Below are positions 383 to 13,309 of a DNA stretch of 13,309 bases, one piece after another (the first letter of the stretch is position 1; each line of letters opens with the position of its first letter). Source of the stretch: Deltaproteobacteria bacterium. GTDB taxonomy: Bacteria; UBA10199; GCA-002796325; JACPFF01. The stretch lies in contig JACPFG010000072.1 of the NCBI GenBank assembly GCA_016183125.1, positions 1-13,309 of the forward strand, read 5' to 3'. Below the pieces are notes generated by a model. That model made no database searches, had not been told where the DNA came from, and worked only from the letters and a program-made list of their open reading frames with translations. The position numbers and the translations under genes were made by a program.

Positions 383-1174
383 ATGCCAAACATGAAAATG
401 GTCGGATATCTGACCGGTGGCATCCTGCTGCTGCTGATCGCGCTATCTGCCAATCCGTTCGTGATGATCGGCGCCGGCGAACGGGGGGTAGTTATGCAGC
501 TGGGGGCCGTGCAGGAGAAGGTCCTGGAAGAGGGGCTCCATTTCCGGGTCCCGTTCGTACAACGGGTAGTCGTGATCGATGTTAGGACGCAAAAGATGCA
601 GGTAAACGCCCCCTCGTACAGCCGCGACCTGCAGAACGTCGACACCGTTATCGCCCTTAATTTTCACGTCGATCCGACACGGGTAAACAAGCTCTGGCAG
701 GAGATCGGACGGGACTTCGAGGGTCGGATCATCCATCCGGCGATACAAGAATCGGTTAAGGCGGCCACGGCCCAGTTCACCGCGGCCGAGCTGGTGGAAA
801 AGCGCCCGATGGTTAAGGACGAGATCAAGAGCATCCTACAGGAGCGGCTTGGCGGGCGCTATCTCCTGGTGGACGATTTCTCCATCGTCGATTTCAAGTT
901 TTCCGAATCCTACGAGAAGGCGATCGAGGAGAAGCAGGTCGCGCAGCAGCAGGCCCTAAAGGCGGAAAACGATCTGCGCCGGATTCAGGTGGAGGCCGAG
1001 CAACGGGTCGCCACCGCAAAGGCCGAGGCCGAGGCCATAAGGATTACAGCCGAGGCCCTGCGGCAGAATCCGGACCTGATTCAGTTGGAGGCGGTGAAGA
1101 AATGGGACGGCAAGATGCCGCAGTTTGCCGGGGGCGGATCGATGCCGTTTATCAACCTTCCCACGGGAAGATAG
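383..1174 (+). CDS. SPFH / band-7 / prohibitin-family membrane protein
   Basis: ORF 134-1174. The likely start is ATG 383 ([10 protein letters not shown]...), preceded by AAAGGGGAG. It has an N-terminal TM helix ([18 protein letters not shown]), then a PHB-domain-like core and a C-terminal coiled coil ([37 protein letters not shown]). Stop TAG 1172-1174. Confidence 0.85.
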
Positions 1175-1511
1175 GGGACGGTTTACGCATGGCCTTGACC
1201 CCCGCCCGGTGACGTTTGTCGGCAAGCATCCGCTCCTTCGAACGGCGCGAACGCAGTCGTTTTTGCCGGCGGATCTTTTCTCGGCGCTGCTCCTCGGCGC
1301 TGGCAGCCCCCAATAGTTTGGCCTCCAGCTTTTCGCACAGCAAACGTCGCGCAAGAAAACGATTGATCGCCTGGCTCCGCTCCCTCTGGCATTTGACCTC
1401 TATCCCGGTAGGCCGGTGGCGCAACACCACGCAGGTGGAGGTCTTGTTGACCTTCTGCCCGCCGGCCCCCGACGATCGCGGATCCCAAGTCGCGCCATTC
1501 GGGCCGCCAGT
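1152..1511 (-). CDS. GGQ-domain peptidyl-tRNA hydrolase of the class-I release-factor family (ArfB/YaeJ-like alternative ribosome-rescue factor) with a basic C-terminal tail. The frame is anomalous. It has no ATG/GTG/TTG between an in-frame TGA (1512-1514) and the GGQ motif. The same frame continues upstream as a 24-codon ATG-initiated ORF (ATG at 1584-1586), giving 144 codons overall. Possible pseudogene or recoded gene.
   Basis: My translation of the - strand reads ...[58 protein letters not shown]...[19 protein letters not shown]... This matches the RF GGQ domain ([13 protein letters not shown]...PTGIxVxCQxERSQ) and the ArfB tail (KERRLASK...VKAMRGK, from memory). The ORF track fragments it into 1152-1430 (GTG start downstream of GGQ) and a wrong-frame 1183-1515. 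Confidence 0.6.
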
Positions 1512-1607
1512 TCATTCCCCTTTGCCGGAGATACGGGCCAATTCATAGAGCGTCCTTTCGTAGACCGCATAGGCAAGTTCGATCATCGCCGACTATATAG
1601 AAAGGGC

Positions 1608-1901: not shown

Positions 1902-1952
1902 TACCGCCGATAAATAGTGATAGAGAGGAGTGCAAGAGGGGTTCTGCGCCGC

Positions 1953-3308
1953 ATGACTGCTAACTATTTGAAATTACAGTTATTCGTTTTGGCGGGGGAG
2001 CCGGTGCGGCCTTTCCCCCCGGATCCGCATGGTCTCCCAGAGGCTAATCCGCAGGCACCTAAGGCGCCTCTGCCGCCGCAACCAGGCCGATTGCCGTTTA
2101 GCCCCCAGCCGCCGGGCCAGGTAATAAGGGGGCCTTGGGCACCGAGTCCATCTACCCCACCAGTGGTAATACCACCAGTTGCAGGACCATTGATCGTTGG
2201 AGCGATTCTGGCACTCATTATCGGTGGACCGGGGGATATACCAGCCGCTCCGTTACCAAGGAGAGATAGCTACGGATGGGACCGCGCCCGTAGGCGTAGT
2301 CACGCTGGCGATCCGGTCACGCCACCAAAACCGGAACGGTTGCTGGAAGAACGGATGCGTTGTCTGGAAGACGAACGCCGCCGGTTTCTTAACAACGGCG
2401 ACACGGACGGCGCTGGCAGGGTGGCCGCCGAACTGGCCGCGGCAGAGGGGCAACTGGCCGATTTTCACGCGTCCGGCCCCTTGGCGAATGGCCAGCACCA
2501 ATTACCCGCCGCTGGCGGTGGGCTATTTACAGAGACATGGACACGCGCCGGGGAGATATTCGCTACCGCCGGAAATATTCATCCGGATGGCGCAGCCAGT
2601 TCGGCGCAAGTGTCGAATATTGAAGATGAACATACGGAACCTGGGTCGTCGCATTTGGCATGGCAGTTAAACGACATTGCAAGCGCTACCGAACTCCTTA
2701 GATATCTTCGCGGTCTCTCACCAAGGACGCAATTTCGCCTGCCTGATGGAAACCAGATCGGTAAGCGGGCGCTCCAATTAGCGGTCCTTGACTGGATCAA
2801 TCGCCTAGGCAGGGAGATTGTTATACCAAAGAAGGGGCACAAACCGCCGCCGGAGCCGGTGTTGCCGGCGGATATACAAAAAAAACTGGCTGATCTCAAA
2901 CCGGTCCTAAAGGCATACACCGAGGAGAAAGCGGCAGCAGCGAATAAGGCCCTATTTATGCGGCTGTCACCGCCAGAGCTGCCCCCGACCCGTGCCGCCC
3001 TGGAAATAATCGGCTGGAAAGGACTTGAGCTGGCAGGGTGGCCCGAGACATGGTCGTGGACATTTGGGAGCGGGAGAAATGGCAAGGCGCCCGATCTGGT
3101 TGTCGGCGCGACCCAGGCCTCCGGAATGCACGGGACGATCACGTGGGACGGGAATAATTTTGTGATTTCAGTGGAAGGTCGGAATGGTCTCTATGTTAAC
3201 GGAATACATTACCAGAAGGGCGCAAATGTCACATTAAAACCGAGGCAGGAATTTTTCATCGGCCACCAAAAAGGGGGCCTCCGTGTCCGGCTGGTCTTGC
3301 TCCCCTAA
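1953..3308 (+). CDS. Proline-rich, single-pass membrane protein with a C-terminal FHA (forkhead-associated, phosphothreonine-binding) domain
   Basis: ORF 1917-3308; the track start is GTG, and a more likely start is ATG 1953 (MTANYL...). It has a Pro-rich N-terminus (PQAPKAPLPPQPGRLPFSPQPP...), a TM helix PLIVGAILALIIGGPG (about nt 2184-2231), and a C-terminal FHA signature FGSGRNGKAPDLVVG...SGMHGTITWDGNNFVISVEGRNGLYVNGIHYQKG...FIGHQ...LRV. Confidence 0.8.
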   Translation: MTANYLKLQLFVLAGEPVRPFPPDPHGLPEANPQAPKAPLPPQPGRLPFSPQPPGQVIRGPWAPSPSTPPVVIPPVAGPLIVGAILALIIGGPGDIPAAPLPRRDSYGWDRARRRSHAGDPVTPPKPERLLEERMRCLEDERRRFLNNGDTDGAGRVAAELAAAEGQLADFHASGPLANGQHQLPAAGGGLFTETWTRAGEIFATAGNIHPDGAASSAQVSNIEDEHTEPGSSHLAWQLNDIASATELLRYLRGLSPRTQFRLPDGNQIGKRALQLAVLDWINRLGREIVIPKKGHKPPPEPVLPADIQKKLADLKPVLKAYTEEKAAAANKALFMRLSPPELPPTRAALEIIGWKGLELAGWPETWSWTFGSGRNGKAPDLVVGATQASGMHGTITWDGNNFVISVEGRNGLYVNGIHYQKGANVTLKPRQEFFIGHQKGGLRVRLVLLP

Positions 3309-3399: not shown

Positions 3400-3642
3400 A
3401 TGGCGACCTCTGTGCGCACGACCATCGTGCTTCCCGGCGAAAAACTGAAGGAGCTCAAACGGCTCGCGTTTGAGCAGGGTTCCACGATCGGCCGGCTGGT
3501 GAACGAGGCCTTGGACCGGGTGTTTTTCAAGCGGCGGAAACAACGGCGGTTTCATGACCTTCGGGGTCTCTGGAAGGGGCGGCGGTTTAGTGAAAGCGCC
3601 ATTGAGGCGGCGAAACTCCGGATGAAGACCTTTCCGTCATGA
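3400..3642 (+). CDS. vapB: Ribbon-helix-helix (CopG/VapB-type) antitoxin
   Basis: MATSVRTTIVLPGEKLKELKRLAFEQGSTIGRLVNEALDRVF... SD GGAGGGGGG (3387-3395). Stop TGA overlaps the vapC ATG (ATGA at 3639-3642). The track ORF starts at GTG 3394. Confidence 0.8.
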   Translation: MATSVRTTIVLPGEKLKELKRLAFEQGSTIGRLVNEALDRVFFKRRKQRRFHDLRGLWKGRRFSESAIEAAKLRMKTFPS

Positions 3643-4031
3643 CGTACGTGCCCGATACCCATGCCTTGGTGTGGTTTCTCGCCAATGATCCGCGTTTGGG
3701 TCGCCGCGCCGGGATGGTGTTTCAGGAGGCCGCAGCGCAGTTCGCTGTGCCCACTCTCGTGCTCTGCGAGATGCACTATTTGGCGGAGCGGGAACGCATT
3801 GCCAGGGACATGGCCAAGATCCTCGACTATATGCGGGGCGACGATCGCTTCGCCCTGATCCCCTTGGATGAGAACGTTATTAGGCATCTCCCCGGGGGCC
3901 TGGACATTCATGATGGCATTATCGTTGCCACGGCGCTTGCCGTCGGCATGGCACGAAAGACCAAATCCATTCTTGTCACCCGCGATGCCGACATCCGCCG
4001 CGCGGGCCTGGTCGAAACTATTTGGGAGTAA
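3639..4031 (+). CDS. vapC: PIN-domain ribonuclease toxin VapC
   Basis: 130 aa. Conserved acidic residues: D6 (VPDTHAL), E (LCEMHYLAE), D (IHDGIIVATA) and D (VTRDADI). 4-nt overlap with vapB. Confidence 0.85.
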   Translation: MTYVPDTHALVWFLANDPRLGRRAGMVFQEAAAQFAVPTLVLCEMHYLAERERIARDMAKILDYMRGDDRFALIPLDENVIRHLPGGLDIHDGIIVATALAVGMARKTKSILVTRDADIRRAGLVETIWE

Positions 4032-4046
4032 GAGCGCGTAACGAAA

Positions 4047-5699
4047 TCAAAACTCCAGCGACAGCGTGAGACGTCCCCCGTACGCGGGATTGGCCTTGTC
4101 GTACGGCATCGTGGCGACGATCGAGCCCGGATCGATCAGCCCGACATCGATATTATAAGCGCTCCCCGGCCAGAGATAGCCTGCCTCGAGGCTGGTGAAG
4201 AGGTGATCGAAGAAGCGGGCCTCTGCGACCAGGTCGAATTCAACACCGTACCATTTCCCCCGGCTCTCGATCGAGGGCATATTGGCGTTCCCCAGGATCT
4301 CGGCGAAATTAAGGCTCACAGGCGGCTTGTGCGCCCAGGCGGTGATCACCCGCCCACCTACCTTAAACTCATTGGCCGACCTAATCGCCCGGCGGATATC
4401 GAGCCGGTGCAGATATGTCGCCCCGCCGTAGAAGGCGTTATTGATGAAATTGCCGGTGATCGGCACGCCGCCGGTAAGGGTAGCACCGGTCGTCCCGTTT
4501 CGCAGTGTCGGCGATGTTCCAAGCGGGTGGTGGAATAGGAGCAGGCCGAGATTATAGTCCGGCCGGAAGCCGAACTGTGTGATCCGCTGCGAGAGCGGTG
4601 TTGCATCCCCCTCGGCAAAACCTCCCTGCAGCTTCCACTCTCCGCCCCAGTCGTAGGTCCCCTCCGCCTCGACGGCAGCTAGATTAACAGCCAGGTCCTG
4701 CTTGGCCGGCAGCTGGATTATCCCGGGGGCGGCAAGGCCCGTGAATGGGATGGCATTTAGGGCCACACCTGTGGAGATCTTGCCGCCCAGCCGCACATAT
4801 TCGAAGGCCACCTTGTGGTGCGGATCGATCTTCACCCGGCCATACGCATCTAGAAAATACATAAGCGTGTCGCCGTCTATGCCTGCGGCCTGGGTGACAC
4901 CGTTGATGTCCGTCGCCGTCGTCGTGGTGCCAGTGCTCCCGTCCCGCCTGCGCAGGCCCCCATAGGCCCCCACCGCAAAGCGGGGCTCCTCATAGAAGGC
5001 GACCAGGGCATACTGGTTCGTATCCTGCCCGTTATCCCGAATGGCTGTGCCCAGCCCCCCGATCCGCGGGTCCCGCTGGGCCTCGAACGCGATGTCCCAT
5101 AGCGCGCCGACCGTCAGGGCCCCATCGGTGCCGATCGCCTGCTGGGTTAAGAACATCACCCGGTCGGCCGTGTCGCCAAAATCACCCTGTCGGTGGTTGC
5201 CGTCGTTCTGGAAGATCCCCAGCCCCCAGTGAGAGGGCTGGCGCCCTGCGCGCAATTTGCCAATCGGCGTGAAGATGTCGATCCACGCGCGGCGCACGTT
5301 GAGACTGCGGTTTTCGCCCGCCTCGCTCCCGACCACACTCAAACTCCCCGCGCCGGCGGGGAGCGTGATCGTGCCCACCACCGGTGAGAGGACCTCCAGT
5401 TGTTTGGTCGCCTGGCTGCCGAAGGTCAGATTGTCGAGGATATCGAACTGGGTGTGGAGAGAGAGAAAATCGTTTACCTTGAGTGTCGGTTCCACCCGCA
5501 GGCGCATCTGGTTGTACTGGATAAGGCCGAACCGGTCGTTCGTATTTGCCAGGGTGCTCGGCCTCTGTGTATCAAGATCTTGAAGCGCCGACCCTCTGAG
5601 CCGATAGTAACCGTGCGCGGCAAAATCAACCGCGTGGCCAAGGCGGGGAGAGAGGACGCAGCAAAGTAATGCCGGCAACAACCGCGCGATCGCTTTCAT
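4047..5699 (-). CDS. Outer-membrane beta-barrel protein, 550 aa, with signal peptide and C-terminal Phe
   Basis: N-terminal MKAIARLLPALLCCVLSPRLGHA signal peptide. Alternating hydrophobic beta-strand pattern, rich in G/Y/N/D. C-terminal ...GGRLTLSLEF, the aromatic terminus typical of the OMP beta-signal. No family assignment is possible by eye. Confidence 0.75.
   Translation of the reverse strand: MKAIARLLPALLCCVLSPRLGHAVDFAAHGYYRLRGSALQDLDTQRPSTLANTNDRFGLIQYNQMRLRVEPTLKVNDFLSLHTQFDILDNLTFGSQATKQLEVLSPVVGTITLPAGAGSLSVVGSEAGENRSLNVRRAWIDIFTPIGKLRAGRQPSHWGLGIFQNDGNHRQGDFGDTADRVMFLTQQAIGTDGALTVGALWDIAFEAQRDPRIGGLGTAIRDNGQDTNQYALVAFYEEPRFAVGAYGGLRRRDGSTGTTTTATDINGVTQAAGIDGDTLMYFLDAYGRVKIDPHHKVAFEYVRLGGKISTGVALNAIPFTGLAAPGIIQLPAKQDLAVNLAAVEAEGTYDWGGEWKLQGGFAEGDATPLSQRITQFGFRPDYNLGLLLFHHPLGTSPTLRNGTTGATLTGGVPITGNFINNAFYGGATYLHRLDIRRAIRSANEFKVGGRVITAWAHKPPVSLNFAEILGNANMPSIESRGKWYGVEFDLVAEARFFDHLFTSLEAGYLWPGSAYNIDVGLIDPGSIVATMPYDKANPAYGGRLTLSLEF
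4049..4069. repeat. Right copy of the 21-bp direct repeat AAAACTCCAGCGACAGCGTGA. It forms the functional 3' end (…RLTLSLEF-stop) of the OMP gene.
   Basis: Exact match to 3307-3327. Confidence 0.7.
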
Positions 5700-5730
5700 T
5701 TGGTGCCCGCGGTTGTAGCCCAGGCGGTTT

Positions 5731-5772
5731 AAAAAAGCAAACGGGGCGAGGAGAAGATCCCCTCGCCCCGTT
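5731..5772 (-). terminator. Rho-independent terminator of the groESL operon. Stem CGGGGCGAGG/CCTCGCCCCG with a 9-nt loop; a U-tract on the - strand from the A6 run at 5731-5736.
   Basis: Perfect 10-bp GC-rich inverted repeat 5742-5751/5761-5770, read directly. Located 28 nt downstream of the groEL stop. Confidence 0.6.
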
Positions 5773-5797
5773 AAGCATTGCCTAAAATAGCCGCTGC

Positions 5798-7375
<1,578 letters not shown>

Positions 7376-7678
7376 CTATGCGTTGACTACACCCAAGACA
7401 TCATCCTCGCGAACAATCAGGTATTCCTGCCCTTCCATTTTGATCTCACTGCCAGAGTACTTGCTGAAGAGGATCCGGTCTCCGACCTTGACATCAAGCG
7501 TGCGGGTCTGCCCGTTTTCAAGGACCTTTCCGTTCCCCACCGCGATCACTTCACCCTCTTGTGGCTTCTCCTTGGCGGTATCGGGGATGATGATTCCGAC
7601 CTTGCTCTTCTCCTCCTCCGAGATCCGTTTCACTAGGATACGGTCTTGGAGCGGTCGAATCTTTGGCTTTGCTGCCAT
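7376..7678 (-). CDS. groES: Co-chaperonin GroES (Cpn10), 100 aa
   Basis: [50 protein letters not shown]... SD AAAGGAGGGTG before ATG 7678. The track ORF 7376-7792 is over-extended. Confidence 0.93.
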
Positions 7679-7689
7679 GGCACCCTCCT

Positions 7690-7922
7690 TTAAAATTGGT
7701 TTGACCAGATCGCCTCCCCTCCAGCACCCCACGCTTGAGCGTTGCGATCTTGGCCCTGGCCTTCTGGTCGATGCCCGCCTCGCCTCTGACATACTGGATC
7801 ATAGCCCGCTTGATCTCCTGGGTCATTACATCAGGGTCGTCGGTCTCGATAAGGCCACCTGCCATCAGGGCGCGCCCAATTGCGTGGGCAAGAGAGCTTA
7901 TTCTTTCATCGGATAGAAGCAT
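7690..7922 (-). CDS. Small hypothetical protein (gene B), translationally coupled to the upstream gene by TAATG. As sequenced the frame has no stop until 7551 and so runs 128 nt into groES. Restoring one base in a G-run around 7716-7720 would end it at TAA 7690-7692, just before the groES SD.
   Basis: [66 protein letters not shown]... looks protein-like up to the G-runs, then degenerates ([21 protein letters not shown]). The -1 frame there reads ...[10 protein letters not shown]-stop. Confidence 0.4.
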
Positions 7923-8266: not shown

Positions 8267-9088
8267 ATGGGGGTCCGACCCTATCCACTGGCCAGCCGCG
8301 TGGGCCATGCGCAACCGTCGACTATTGCAATTCGGAACGGCTCCGTCCAAGTCGGAAACGGGGCGTTTTGCCTCATAGCGGGTCCATGTGCCGTCGAATC
8401 GCGCGAGCAGATAGTCGAATGTGCCCGCGCGGTGAAGGCGGCCGGGGCAAATGCGCTGCGAGGCGGCGTCTACAAGCCGCGCACGAGCCCGTACGATTTT
8501 CAGGGCCTGGGTGAGGAGGGACTCCGCCTGCTGGCAACCGCACGCGAGGTAACAGGGTTGCCCATAGTCACCGAGGTCCTCGATCCGCGCGATGTCGCGC
8601 TGGTAGGCGAATACGCTGATTGCATCCAGGTGGGGTCGCGCAATACCCAGAATTATCCCTTACTTAAGGAATTAGGGCTCATCCGGCGGCCTGTGCTTCT
8701 CAAGCGCGGCATGGCGATGACTATTCACGAATGGCTCCTCTCCGCCGAATATATCTTATCTGCGGGCAATACAGACGTGATCCTCTGCGAGCGGGGGATC
8801 CGCACGTTCGAGAGCGCCACGAGGCACACGCTAGATCTAAATGCTATTCCGGTGCTAAAGGCTGAGACCCATCTCCCAGTACTGGTCGATCCCTCCCACG
8901 GGACCGGCTGCGCCGCCTACGTCCCGGCGATGGCGAAGGCTGCTATGGCCGCGGGCGCCGACGGACTGCTTATCGAGGTCCATCCCGATCCGGCGACAGC
9001 GGTCAGCGATGGCGAACAGTCGCTCACCTGCGGCCAGTTCGCGGCACTCTCCACCCAGTTGCGCACTTTGCGTACCGCCCTCCGCTGA
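8267..9088 (+). CDS. 3-deoxy-7-phosphoheptulonate (DAHP) synthase, class I-beta (short Thermotoga/Pyrococcus type without a regulatory domain)
   Basis: [12 protein letters not shown]...[26 protein letters not shown]...VDPSHGTG...HPDP. The KPRTSPY and DPSH motifs separate it from KDO8P synthase. 273 aa. Confidence 0.88.
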
Positions 9089-9155
9089 CCTCCGCTGGCC
9101 GGTTGACTCATCGGTGGGCCCATGATAGGCGGCGGCAGCCTTGGAAGGAGGGCCT

Positions 9156-10175
9156 ATGTCTCCCGTGCGGGTCGCAGTGAATGGATTCGGTAGGATCGGT
9201 CGGCAAATCGTCAAGTTGGCGATGAACGATCCTGCGATCGAGTTTGTAGGCATCAATGAGATATGCGACGTGCCGACGATGGCACACCTGCTTAAATACG
9301 ACTCCATCTTCGGGCGCGCGGCCATTTCGGTGGAGGCGCGCGATCGGGCGCTGGTCGTTAACGGCAAGCCGATTCCGGTAACTAGCGAGAAGGATCCGGC
9401 CAAGCTCCCATGGAAGGCCAGGGAGGCCCATCTGGTACTGGAGTGTACGGGGAAGTTTACCGATCGGGAGGCCGCGGCGGCCCATCTTACCGCCGGTGCG
9501 CGCACCGTGATCGTCTCAGCGCCAGCCAAGGGGGCCGATGTGACTGTCTGCATGGGAGTCAACCAGCAGACGATCGATCCGGCCAAACACCGGGTCATCT
9601 CCAATGCATCCTGCACGACAAATTGCCTAGCCCCGATAGCGAAGGTCCTGCACGAGCGTTTTCGGATCGAGTCAGGATTCATGACCACCATCCATTCATA
9701 TACGAGCGATCAGCGCCTTATGGACAGCCCGCACAAGGATTGGCGGCGGGCACGGGCCGCTGCCCTCTCTCAGATTCCGACATCAACCGGTGCGGCCAGG
9801 GCGGTTGGGTTGGTCCTGCCGGAGCTTACGGGCAAGCTGGACGGGATCGCTATTCGAGTCCCGACGGCAAATGTCTCATGCCTCGATCTGGTGGCAACCC
9901 TTGCTACTGCGACTACTGCTGCGGAAATAAACGCGGCCTTCAAGGCGGCTGCCGGCGGCCCCCTTAAGGGGATCTTGGCTGTAAGCGAGGAGCCGCTCGT
10001 CTCCGCCGATTTTTGCGGCGATCCACACTCGAGCATAGTCGATGCCATGTCGACCTTAGTGCTGCCAGCTGCCGGCGGTCGGTTCGTCAAGGTGTTGGCC
10101 TGGTACGATAACGAGACCGGATTTGCCCAGCGGATGGTAGATCTGGCGAAATACGTCGGCGAGCGATGGTCATGA
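9156..10175 (+). CDS. gap: Glyceraldehyde-3-phosphate dehydrogenase, type I
   Basis: VAVNGFGRIGR (NAD-binding), catalytic SNASCTTNCLAP, and WYDNETGF near the C-terminus. SD GGAAGGAGGG before ATG 9156. The track ORF starts at TTG 9141. Confidence 0.95.
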   Translation: MSPVRVAVNGFGRIGRQIVKLAMNDPAIEFVGINEICDVPTMAHLLKYDSIFGRAAISVEARDRALVVNGKPIPVTSEKDPAKLPWKAREAHLVLECTGKFTDREAAAAHLTAGARTVIVSAPAKGADVTVCMGVNQQTIDPAKHRVISNASCTTNCLAPIAKVLHERFRIESGFMTTIHSYTSDQRLMDSPHKDWRRARAAALSQIPTSTGAARAVGLVLPELTGKLDGIAIRVPTANVSCLDLVATLATATTAAEINAAFKAAAGGPLKGILAVSEEPLVSADFCGDPHSSIVDAMSTLVLPAAGGRFVKVLAWYDNETGFAQRMVDLAKYVGERWS

Positions 10176-11359
10176 TGAAATCGGTCCGCGAGATTGCGTG
10201 TCACGAACAGCGCGTCTTCTTGCGCGTCGATTGGAATTGTCCGCTGGCCGACGACAGGGTGGCCGACGATGCGCGCATCCGTGCGACGTTGCCTACCGTC
10301 AGGTATCTGTTGGAGCAGAAGGCGCGTATTATAATTGCGTCACATCTAGGCCGGCCTTCCGGCGCCGGTTTCGAGCCAAGCTATTCTCTGGCCCCTGTGG
10401 GGGAGCGGCTGGCCGAACTCCTGGCGGACGACACGGAGGTCCTTTTGCCGGAGGATTGCATCGGAGATGCGGCGCGGAAGCTGGCGCATGAACTTGCGCC
10501 GGGCCAGATCCTCTTGTTGGAAAATCTTCGATTTCATCCGGAGGAGGAGAAGAATGATCCCAAATTCGCCGAGTTGCTGGCCGGTCTGGCGGAGGTCTAC
10601 GTGAACGATGCCTTCGGGGCCGCGCATCGGGCGCACGCCTCCATCGTCGGCGTGCCTCGGCTGATGCCGGTGAAGGCGGCCGGATTACTGATGCAGCGGG
10701 AGACAGAGCAGTTAGGTCAGTTGCTTTCTAAACCTGCCCGCCCATTCGTGGCCATGTTGGGGGGGGCCAAGGTGGCAGATAAGATCGGCGTGATCGAGCA
10801 TCTGCTGTCTACCGCAGATGTGCTCGCTATCGGTGGCGCGATGGCGTATACGTTTCTCAAGGCAAAGGAAATTTCAGTCGGCAGGTCGCCGGTGGACGAG
10901 GCGAAGGTGTTCACCGCGCGCAAGGTGCTGGAGCGGGCCGAGACTAAGGGGGTGCGGGTGCTCCTCCCGGCGGACCATATCGCTGCGGCGTCGCCGGAGG
11001 CCGCCGGAAAGGTGATCCGGGAGGCTAATATCCCGGCCGACTTGCAAGGATGCGACATCGGACCCCAAACGACCGTCCAGTTTGCCAGGGTCTGCAAGGA
11101 GGCTCGCACTATCTTTTGGAACGGTCCTATGGGCCGGTTTGAGATCCCGGAGTTTGCGAAAGGAACGGTGGCGGTGGCGCAGGCAGTAGCGGCCAGTGAG
11201 GCGGTGACGGTGGTAGGGGGCGGCGATTCGATTGCGGCGCTGCATCAGGCAGGTGTGGCTGAACGGATCACCCATGTCTCTACTGGTGGAGGGGCAAGCC
11301 TGGATTTCCTGGAGGGGAAGACCCTGCCGGGGATAGAGGCGCTGGAGGTTTCTTCATGA
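10166..11359 (+). CDS. pgk: Phosphoglycerate kinase
   Basis: Canonical PGK sequence throughout. The start is one of ATG 10166, 10172 or 10175; 10175 overlaps the gap stop as TGATG. The TGA stop overlaps the tpiA ATG (ATGA). Confidence 0.95.
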   Translation: MVMMKSVREIACHEQRVFLRVDWNCPLADDRVADDARIRATLPTVRYLLEQKARIIIASHLGRPSGAGFEPSYSLAPVGERLAELLADDTEVLLPEDCIGDAARKLAHELAPGQILLLENLRFHPEEEKNDPKFAELLAGLAEVYVNDAFGAAHRAHASIVGVPRLMPVKAAGLLMQRETEQLGQLLSKPARPFVAMLGGAKVADKIGVIEHLLSTADVLAIGGAMAYTFLKAKEISVGRSPVDEAKVFTARKVLERAETKGVRVLLPADHIAAASPEAAGKVIREANIPADLQGCDIGPQTTVQFARVCKEARTIFWNGPMGRFEIPEFAKGTVAVAQAVAASEAVTVVGGGDSIAALHQAGVAERITHVSTGGGASLDFLEGKTLPGIEALEVSS

Positions 11360-12011
11360 CATCACGGGGCCTGGTGGTGGGCAACTGGAAGATGCACGGG
11401 ACGATAGGGGAGAGCCTGAAGCTCGTAACAGGGATGGAGCATCATCTTAAGGCCCCTGTGGAGCTCGACGTTGCCGTGGCACCTCCTTTCACGGCGCTCT
11501 ATTCGGTAGGGATAACCCTGCAGGAGACCCAGTTTCATCTGGCGGCCCAACAGATGATATCGTGAATAAGAAACTTGAGGCTGCGTTGCGCAATGAGCTC
11601 GCGCCGATTTTTTGCGTAGGTGAGACGGCGGATGAGCGCGAACGGCGTGAAATGGAGACTGTGCTCGAGCGACAGATCAAACGAGGCCTGGCCGGGTTGC
11701 ATCATAAAGATGTGGAACATCTAGTGGTAGCCTACGAGCCGATATGGGCGATTGGGACGGGCAAGACAGCGACAGCAGACCAGATAGCCGAGGCCCATCA
11801 TTTCCTTCGCAATCTATTGGAAAAACTATACGATGCGCCTACGGCCGTGCAGGTGCGAATCCTCTACGGGGGAAGCGTCGCTGTGGAGAGTGCGGGTTTG
11901 ATAGCTGAGTTAAATGGGGTTGACGGTTTCCTGGTCGGTGGAGCGTCGCTAACAGCCGGTGACTTCGCCGAGATCGTCCGTACGGCTGAACTGAAGATCC
12001 GAAAGAGGTGA
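11356..12011 (+). pseudogene. tpiA: Triosephosphate isomerase gene disrupted by an internal deletion of about 118 nt plus a frameshift. The N-terminal 69-codon fragment is 11356-11565. The C-terminal 149-codon fragment is 11562-12011, in another frame.
   Basis: The N fragment ...VGNWKMHGT...VAVAPPFTAL...LAAQQMIS-stop matches TIM up to the AQN region. The C fragment starts (V)NKKLEAALRNELAPIFCVGE... and continues with YEPIWAIGTGKTAT...ILYGGSV...GGASL. The catalytic H95 segment is missing between them. Confidence 0.8.
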
Positions 12012-12015
12012 CACG

Positions 12016-12306
12016 ATGCAAACGGGTATACTGGTGATCCATTATCTGGTCTGCGCGCTGCTTGTCCTGGTGATTCTCCTCCAGTCGGGCAAAGGGGCGG
12101 AGATAGGCGCTGTCTTTTCCGGCTCCTCGCAGACAATATTCGGCGGGCGCGGTCCTGCTACATTCTTCCAGAAATTGACGGTCGGATTGGCCCTGGTTTT
12201 TCTATGCACCTCGATCGGGCTTGCTTATTACGCAAAGGTCGCTACGCAACGGACCGTGATCGAGGAGGCACCGGCACCGGAACAACCGGCGGAGAGCGGG
12301 AGGTAA
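12016..12306 (+). CDS. secG: Preprotein translocase subunit SecG
   Basis: MQTGILVIHYLVCALLVLVILLQSGKGAEIGAVFSGSSQTIFGGRGPATFFQKLTVGLALVF... is the typical SecG double-TM pattern with LLQxGKG. SD AAGAGGTGA. Conserved gap-pgk-tpiA-secG synteny. Confidence 0.85.
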   Translation: MQTGILVIHYLVCALLVLVILLQSGKGAEIGAVFSGSSQTIFGGRGPATFFQKLTVGLALVFLCTSIGLAYYAKVATQRTVIEEAPAPEQPAESGR

Positions 12307-12325
12307 CTACACACAACCTCTTTCT

Positions 12326-12484
12326 CTAACGCAATACATTTTCGACAAACTCCTTTGCTTCTTCGACGATCAAGTCGGCCTTCTCCGGTGTTATCGGCGA
12401 GGGATTGGAACCCTTGCAGATCGTCGGGATGGTGGGCGTTGCCGCCTCGGTCCTTCTCCTCCAGCGACTCACCGCCGTCGCCAT
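12326..12484 (-). CDS. Speculative 52-aa ORF downstream of, and co-oriented with, the Fic gene (MATAVSRWRRRTEAATPTIPTICKGSNPSPITPEKADLIVEEAKEFVENVLR)
   Basis: Hand-translated. Below the 60-aa track cutoff. Basic N-terminus and amphipathic acidic C-terminus. No SD. Confidence 0.12.
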   Translation of the reverse strand: MATAVSRWRRRTEAATPTIPTICKGSNPSPITPEKADLIVEEAKEFVENVLR

Positions 12485-12523
12485 CCCGCAGCCGGGATGA
12501 TCATTGGCAAGCGAAGGGATCGG

Positions 12524-13309
12524 TTATTTTCCTAGAGTCTCTGCAAGGGCGTAGCTGGTAGAGCGCCCGCGCGCCGGATCTTTGGCCAGGATATGCCGCG
12601 CGACCAGGTCGTCAATATCGCGTAGCGCCGTATCTTGCGAGCACTTGGCTAGCTTCGCCCATTTCGACGATGTAAGCTTGCCGTCAAATCCATCGAGAAG
12701 ACGGTTGATGACAAGGCGTTGTCGGTCGTTTAAGGATTGGCTCCTCTGTTCTTCCCAAAAGCGCGCTTTTTTCATCACACCCGCGAGGATGGTCTCTGCG
12801 CCTTCGAAGGCCCGATCAAGACAGTTCAAGAACCAATCAAGCCAGAGCGTGATGTCGAGATAGCCCCTCTGGGTGGCTTCGAGAATGTCATAATAGGCCT
12901 TTCGCTCTTCCCGGATCTGCGCCGACATGCTGTAGAAGCGTTGCGCATTCTTCTCTGAGCGCGCGAGCGTAAGATCAGCAATGGCGCGTGCTATACGACC
13001 ATTGCCGTCGTCGAAAGGATGGATGGTGACAAACCAAAGGTGCGCCACACCTGCCTTGAGAACCAAATCGTCGGGCGCATCTTTTTTATTGAACCAGTGC
13101 AGAAACGCCTTCATCTCCGTGCGCAGGCGGTCAGTAGCGGGCGCCTCATAATGGACCCGCTCGCGGCCCGCCGCACCGGAAACAACCTGCATCGGGCCGG
13201 TCTTGTCTTTACGCCATGCACCGACGGTGATCTTGGTCATGCCGCTACGCCCGGTTGGAAACAGCGAGGCGTGCCATGCGAACAAGCGATTGGTGGTCAT
13301 CGGGTCGGC
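12524..13309 (-). CDS. Fic/Doc-family protein (AMPylase-type), 3' portion only; the 5' end lies beyond the window edge. Core motif HPFDDGNGRIAR and a C-terminal winged-helix-like domain.
   Basis: HPFxDGNGRxxR read directly in ...VTIHPFDDGNGRIARAIADLTLA... The ORF is still open at 13309 (track M at 13300 is internal). Stop at 12524-12526. Confidence 0.85.
   Translation of the reverse strand, partial: ADPMTTNRLFAWHASLFPTGRSGMTKITVGAWRKDKTGPMQVVSGAAGRERVHYEAPATDRLRTEMKAFLHWFNKKDAPDDLVLKAGVAHLWFVTIHPFDDGNGRIARAIADLTLARSEKNAQRFYSMSAQIREERKAYYDILEATQRGYLDITLWLDWFLNCLDRAFEGAETILAGVMKKARFWEEQRSQSLNDRQRLVINRLLDGFDGKLTSSKWAKLAKCSQDTALRDIDDLVARHILAKDPARGRSTSYALAETLGK

Follow-up and report, generated by a model that had tools for sequence, protein, structure and literature searches.

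A gap-pgk-tpiA-secG operon in which three genes are intact and the remaining one, tpiA, is broken into two reading frames raises the question of whether the gene was lost by the organism or its sequence was damaged on the way to the public record. We address this question on an NCBI MAG contig analyzed over its entire length of 13,309 nt (hereafter the window), which has a GC content of 59.6% and contains zero Ns. The first-pass annotation of this DNA had described the split and offered three readings of it (a recent pseudogene, heterogeneity in the population and an assembly error) without choosing among them. The evidence put forward here favors the last of these, with the pseudogene keeping lower odds: the split in tpiA probably arose from a mistake in local assembly or at a scaffold join when this low-coverage MAG contig was built. 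The contig carries at least two further clean internal gaps beside the one in tpiA, located in groEL and in a gene encoding an RF-1 domain.

Structure of the split tpiA gene

Features of the window and their NCBI protein records are collected in Table 1. The list of open reading frames (ORF) resolves tpiA (11356-12011, plus strand) into two ORFs in different frames, and the Pfam TIM profile and the TIMs in PDB both match the gene in the same two blocks, bearing out the split as originally described. Beyond Q65, the N-terminal frame continues out of register through Q-M-I-S to a TGA at 11563-11565, so that the ...LAAQQMIS end and the change of frame reported by the first-pass annotation can be read directly from the ORF list. 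Among ORFs with a start codon, the longest in the C-terminal part (11562-12011) opens with a GTG, reads MNKKLEAAL... and covers the C-terminal two thirds of TIM. Homology in this frame reaches upstream of the GTG to position 11550, where T-D-D-I-V-N-K-K-L aligns with the ETDE(L/V)(V/I)NKKL of the relatives, and the junction is therefore placed at 11549/11550 with zero spacer; the remnant of 8 nt once assigned to the space between the flanking codons does not survive this comparison. The last codon of the N-terminal frame and the first codon of the C-terminal frame have one base in common, and the junction leaves room for no more than 1-3 nt of microhomology.

Table 1. Features of the window, with coordinates, strand, NCBI protein records and supporting evidence
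Feature	Coordinates	Strand	NCBI protein	Evidence or remark
RF-1-domain gene (peptide chain release factor-like, GGQ), split	1152..1546	-		Three-frame translation, Pfam RF-1, nine-homologue alignment
Prohibitin-family protein			MBI2346370	
67-aa hypothetical protein			MBI2346371	
Large ORF with FHA domain	1917..3308	+		463 aa as listed
PIN domain protein	3639..4031	+	MBI2346374	
Porin-like protein			MBI2346375	
groEL, 518 aa, in-frame 72-nt (24-codon) gap at 6800/6799	5798..7354	-	MBI2346376.1 (identical to window GroEL)	PDB GroEL, protein and DNA alignments
GroES			MBI2346377	
Second DUF507 gene (DUF507-2), probably truncated	7679..7922	-		Pfam DUF507 columns 94-163 of 182 only
DUF507, first copy			MBI2346378	
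DAHP synthase			MBI2346379	
gap, type I GAPDH, 339 aa, intact	9156..10175	+	MBI2346380.1	Full-length Pfam Gp_dh_N and Gp_dh_C; L084 100% identical
pgk, 395 aa, intact	10172..11359	+	MBI2346381.1	Pfam PGK columns 2-379 of 379
tpiA, N-terminal homologous part, M1-Q65	11356..11550	+		ORF list, Pfam TIM columns 2-62, alignment with intact relatives
tpiA junction, 121 nt missing	11549..11550	+		DNA alignment with closest intact genes, reading of the C-terminal frame
tpiA, C-terminal homologous part, TDDIVNKKL...KIRKR and stop	11550..12011	+		Pfam TIM columns 106-244, PDB TIM residues 109-248, L083
secG, 96 aa, intact	12016..12306	+	MBI2346382.1	Pfam SecG
Fic-domain gene	12524..13309	-		HPFDDGNGR motif
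Logan contig L083 (single SRA run)	11682..12647			100% identical, collinear; found via secG
Logan contig L084 (single SRA run)	9068..10466			100% identical, collinear; found via gap
Logan contig L085 (single SRA run)	3418..5795			100% identical, collinear; found via the PIN gene

Alignment of the DNA with the two closest intact genes opens a single gap of 121 columns, which revises the size of the deletion from the previous figure of about 118 nt to 121 nt (40 codons plus one nucleotide). When both fragments are aligned to the TIM HMM, a check that the first-pass annotation had proposed, the missing columns are 63-105. By comparison with P0001, one of the closest intact relatives, the 40 missing residues make up the block that includes GHSERR, and the motif alignment agrees with the earlier account in that GNWKMH (Lys12) and AYEPIWAIGTG (Glu165) are kept and the GHSERR block is lost. 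Following the customary TIM numbering, we take this block to hold the catalytic His95, in the region around strand 4, and the flexible catalytic loop 6, after Glu165, to be retained. The assertion that the catalytic loop had been removed thus stands for the region of strand 4 and His95 and fails for loop 6. The deleted block is present in every one of the approximately 117 homologues aligned, so the gap is not a chance pattern. What remains provides neither a continuous (beta/alpha)8 barrel of about 250 aa spanning the whole PF00121 profile nor, with the GHSERR block deleted, the complete set of Lys12, His95 (by the numbering assumed above) and Glu165. The frameshifting 121-nt deletion is a disabling lesion, as expected of a pseudogene.

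The locus is otherwise akin to that of a regular bacterial TIM (PF00121; NF000722). The gap-pgk-tpiA-secG order is common to the window and its closest relatives (L001 and L002), and the tpiA start (11356) and the pgk stop codon (TGA, 11357-11359) share bases in an ATGA, as had been noted before. With the closest intact TIMs, P0001 (NCBI MAG GCA_016207725.1) and P0002 (Logan SRR22388048), which are 257-258 aa long, the retained parts have 69-70% identity. It differs from such genes in the frameshift, in the missing profile columns and in its score, since the stitched fragments reach 139.1 bits against a cut-off of 293 for NF000722 and 111.7 against 130.6 for TIGR00419, falling below both. A Thermotoga-type PGK-TIM fusion (NF010569), to which the locus bears a likeness in having pgk and tpiA adjacent and translationally coupled, had already been discounted and is ruled out by the separate ORFs, with a stop codon in pgk, and by a score of 200 bits against a cut-off of 883.

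Database identity to the window reaches at most 79% for GroEL and 72% for TIM; when loci were retrieved by PGK from 185,579 species representatives, the best match had 57% identity, which places the source genome outside that set. Exact protein look-ups with the two tpiA fragments (69 aa and 149 aa) returned zero matches, the search for homologues of the 65-aa N-terminal fragment yielded zero candidates, and the exact 26-mer to the left of the tpiA junction had 0 matches in JGI metagenome contigs. Within the window there is no second TIM.

The fragments of tpiA are well preserved. All the columns that are invariant in an alignment of eight sequences are present in them, and the branch leading to the window TIM (0.138) compares with 0.166 and 0.153 for the intact relatives and with 0.145 for the PGK of the window itself. 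The remnants show no relaxed selection or extra decay, a result that a very recent event would produce as well. Given this lack of decay, any real deletion event would have to be very recent.

Further lesions on the contig

The description of the operon as otherwise intact is accurate for gap, pgk and secG, but misleading for the contig as a whole. In groEL, protein and DNA alignments locate a gap that removes 24 core residues and leaves a junction reading GMET/RMDT; the match to GroEL in PDB skips chain residues from about 187 to 207, approximately 22 residues. Other GroEL homologues are 537-639 aa in length (119 among the matches listed). Because the gap is in frame, the damaged protein was issued by NCBI as a normal one, and it sits in nr as an ordinary GroEL of 518 aa (MBI2346376.1). 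Slippage between direct repeats was considered as a source of the groEL gap and rejected: an imperfect 9-mer (ATGGAGACG / ATGGATACG) flanks the junction, yet both copies are retained.

The RF-1-domain gene is interrupted at 1478 by a clean, frameshifting gap of 28 nt. Its N-terminal piece (1546-1478) and its C-terminal piece (1478-1152) lie in different frames, with one base common to both. Absent from the gene, just upstream of GGQ, are nine conserved residues, E-x-D-L-x-E-x-F-(I/V), which all nine full-length RF-1 homologues carry between the two pieces, and the Pfam RF-1 match in the window starts at profile column 18.

A fourth lesion is probably present in the second DUF507 gene, which adjoins a first DUF507 copy (MBI2346378). 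Its profile match ends near 7716 and encounters no stop codon, leaving 37 nt to the groES ATG at 7678. The 3′ end of the gene was probably lost near 7716, and the upstream region of groES may have been lost along with it.

End-to-end profile matches were obtained for gap, pgk, secG, groES and the DAHP synthase, prohibitin-family and PIN genes. Neither 1-nt frameshifts nor substitution stops were seen in the window genes scanned against Pfam, and all the lesions seen are clean deletions, of 28, 72 and 121 nt plus the probable fourth, within 13 kb. Several lesions of the same type on one contig, in unrelated conserved genes, are the pattern expected of an artefact. The consequences for the reading frame (3n+1 in tpiA, 3n in groEL and 3n+1 in the RF-1-domain gene) correspond to chance expectation and are counted toward an artefact as well.

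The numbering of the NCBI proteins mirrors these lesions. There is no NCBI protein for tpiA, with SecG (MBI2346382) coming directly after PGK (MBI2346381), none for the RF-1-domain gene between MBI2346370 and MBI2346371, and none for the second DUF507 gene between GroES (MBI2346377) and the first DUF507 copy (MBI2346378). These missing proteins are consistent with the three genes having been called as pseudogenes or not called at all.

Independent assemblies and source project

Three Logan contigs, assembled from runs SRR12113419 and SRR12113422, overlap the window (Table 1). Since they are 100% identical to it and collinear with it, the strain is real and the stretches that they cover are correct. 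They are 966-2378 nt in length and none spans a lesion; that three such contigs miss three or four lesion sites could readily be due to chance (approximately 0.26). The contig found via the PIN gene ends at 5795, which is 3 nt short of the groEL stop codon (5798). Searches with the genes adjoining the RF-1 lesion gave no matches in Logan. That assemblies of single runs extend over only 1-2.4 kb points to low coverage, and to a record that would then have been joined from pieces.

The window appears to derive from BioProject PRJNA640378, judging by its accession style, its taxon label, the SRA run numbers and its closest relatives, whose records (JACQPA, JACQMB and JACQUX) belong to that project. 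The accessible portion of the supplement text of the project paper contains neither SRR12113419 nor SRR12113422. In the available part of the project data, the Deltaproteobacteria bins with 59-60% GC have a coverage of 9-29x. According to the methods of the project, MEGAHIT contigs were scaffolded with the scaffolding function of IDBA-UD (PMC7906910).

Origin of the deletions

The features outlined above are most readily accommodated by an assembly error. Under this reading, separately assembled pieces would have been joined into one 13.3 kb record and the true sequence at the joins (stretches of 28, 72 and 121 nt and a probable fourth one) would have been dropped, each join appearing as a clean gap; the join in groEL would have kept the frame by chance, and those in tpiA and the RF-1-domain gene would have broken it. 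We infer both the technical cause and the origin of the contig in a MEGAHIT/IDBA-UD pipeline. Several considerations lead us to favor an assembly error: several clean deletions of the same type are found on one contig; the genes hit include tpiA and the groEL of a groES-groEL operon, with the missing blocks being present in every homologue compared; the tpiA fragments are undecayed; and the independent assemblies of the same strain are fragmentary. Scaffold joins normally leave Ns. With zero Ns in the window, a scaffold join has to assume an extra step, such as closure of the gap or an estimate of gap size at or below zero, and this counts against it.

Two specific routes to such an error were evaluated and set aside. 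The collapse of direct repeats of k-mer length is rejected, as homology abuts both sides of each junction and a repeat of at most 1-3 nt is possible. The breaking of contigs at sequence shared between genomes is unsupported, given that the deleted tpiA block shows no enrichment of exact k-mers in common: it makes up 14% of the length of the gene and holds 15% of the shared 15-mers. In terms of conservation, the deleted blocks rank in the top 8% for TIM protein, the top 11% for GroEL protein and the top 9% for TIM nucleotides, a moderate enrichment.

Errors of a comparable nature have been documented by Chen, Anantharaman, Shaiber, Eren and Banfield, who described "local assembly errors" that are backed by no read, suspected them to be prominent in IDBA-UD assemblies and pointed out that wrong gene sequences reach the public databases through them (Chen et al. 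2020, PMC7111523). The likeness to the window lies in scaffolds that are correct apart from brief segments where the consensus is wrong or missing, and in the truncated or frameshifted genes that enter public records as a result; such errors cluster in low-coverage scaffolded assemblies, of which the window would be an example. The correspondence is not complete, in that the cases reported involve unsupported consensus and Ns despite overlap, whereas cases in which 28-121 nt drop out cleanly and no Ns are left are not set out explicitly in that paper (PMC7111523).

An alternative in which the assembler is faithful to its input is that the deletions exist in the sample as minority alleles or chimeric library molecules outside the functional genome of the organism, and that at low coverage the assembler chose the paths that contain them. 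Illegitimate recombination or template switching would equally well leave clean junctions that lack long repeats, the undecayed state of the fragments suits a very recent event, and the strain is present at low depth in single runs. This explanation nonetheless needs three or four independent minority variants to have been picked within 13 kb, and the three Logan contigs, 100% identical to the window in their overlaps, reveal no heterogeneity. We regard it as unlikely.

The remaining explanation takes the record at face value, as a genuine, fixed and very recent pseudogenization in which tpiA and the RF-1-like gene were lost and groEL was damaged, and in which the organism would depend on another TIM, on a bypass or on a partner organism. 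The lesion is there in the deposited sequence, it takes the GHSERR block and shifts the frame, the lack of an NCBI protein at tpiA is consistent with a pseudogene call, and more than one gene on the contig is disrupted. Lineages in early genome decay typically have several genes disrupted. In genome-reducing bacteria, unitary pseudogenes that arose through internal deletion likewise combine a disabling frameshift deletion in a housekeeping gene with several disrupted genes nearby; the window, in contrast, has no accelerated divergence and, in the genes checked, no small indels or stops, and it has intact neighbors. Against fixation stand the absence of a relaxed-selection signal in the tpiA fragments, the restriction of the lesions to medium-sized deletions in the genes checked, with no 1-nt indels or stops among them, the presence of the operon copy of groEL among the targets, the perfectly intact state of gap, pgk, secG, groES and the DAHP synthase gene, and the lack of a second TIM within the window. 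On balance, we deem fixed pseudogenization quite improbable.

In its strongest form, this explanation would have all three or four deletions real and fixed, placing a little-sampled groundwater deltaproteobacterial lineage at the very start of genome decay, a scenario to which we assign very little credence. If it were true, TIM, an apical segment of the operon GroEL and a factor of the ribosome-rescue type would just have been lost, entailing dependence on a paralogue or a partner. Were the deletions real, a lineage of the free-living type would be seen in a very early phase of genome decay.

With an assembly error as the preferred explanation for the split tpiA, the biological weight of the locus is small and its main value is one of caution about the record, since at least three conserved genes are silently truncated on a single 13 kb MAG contig. 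The error would be inherited by metabolic reconstructions that score the genome as devoid of TIM, and by alignments or structure models that make use of the GroEL in MBI2346376.1.

Other features of the window

The frame of the Fic-domain gene, recognized by its HPFDDGNGR motif, is open to the last base of the window, so that the gene is cut by the end of the contig and involves no lesion. The large FHA-domain ORF, which combines a proline-rich N-terminal half with the FHA domain at its C-terminus, gave zero exact matches in the protein collection with either of the two start codons tried. The start of the PIN-domain toxin gene is overlapped by a small ORF lying upstream, and the two probably constitute a toxin-antitoxin pair of the VapBC type; the region that comprises them (3418-4031) is 100% identical in the independent contig L085. 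At the very start of the contig (positions 1-50 of the window), a G/C-rich inverted repeat, CCCCCTCTTAA ATT AAGAGGGGGG, lies within AGTAACTCCCCC...GGGGGGAGTTA and looks like a hairpin or terminator.
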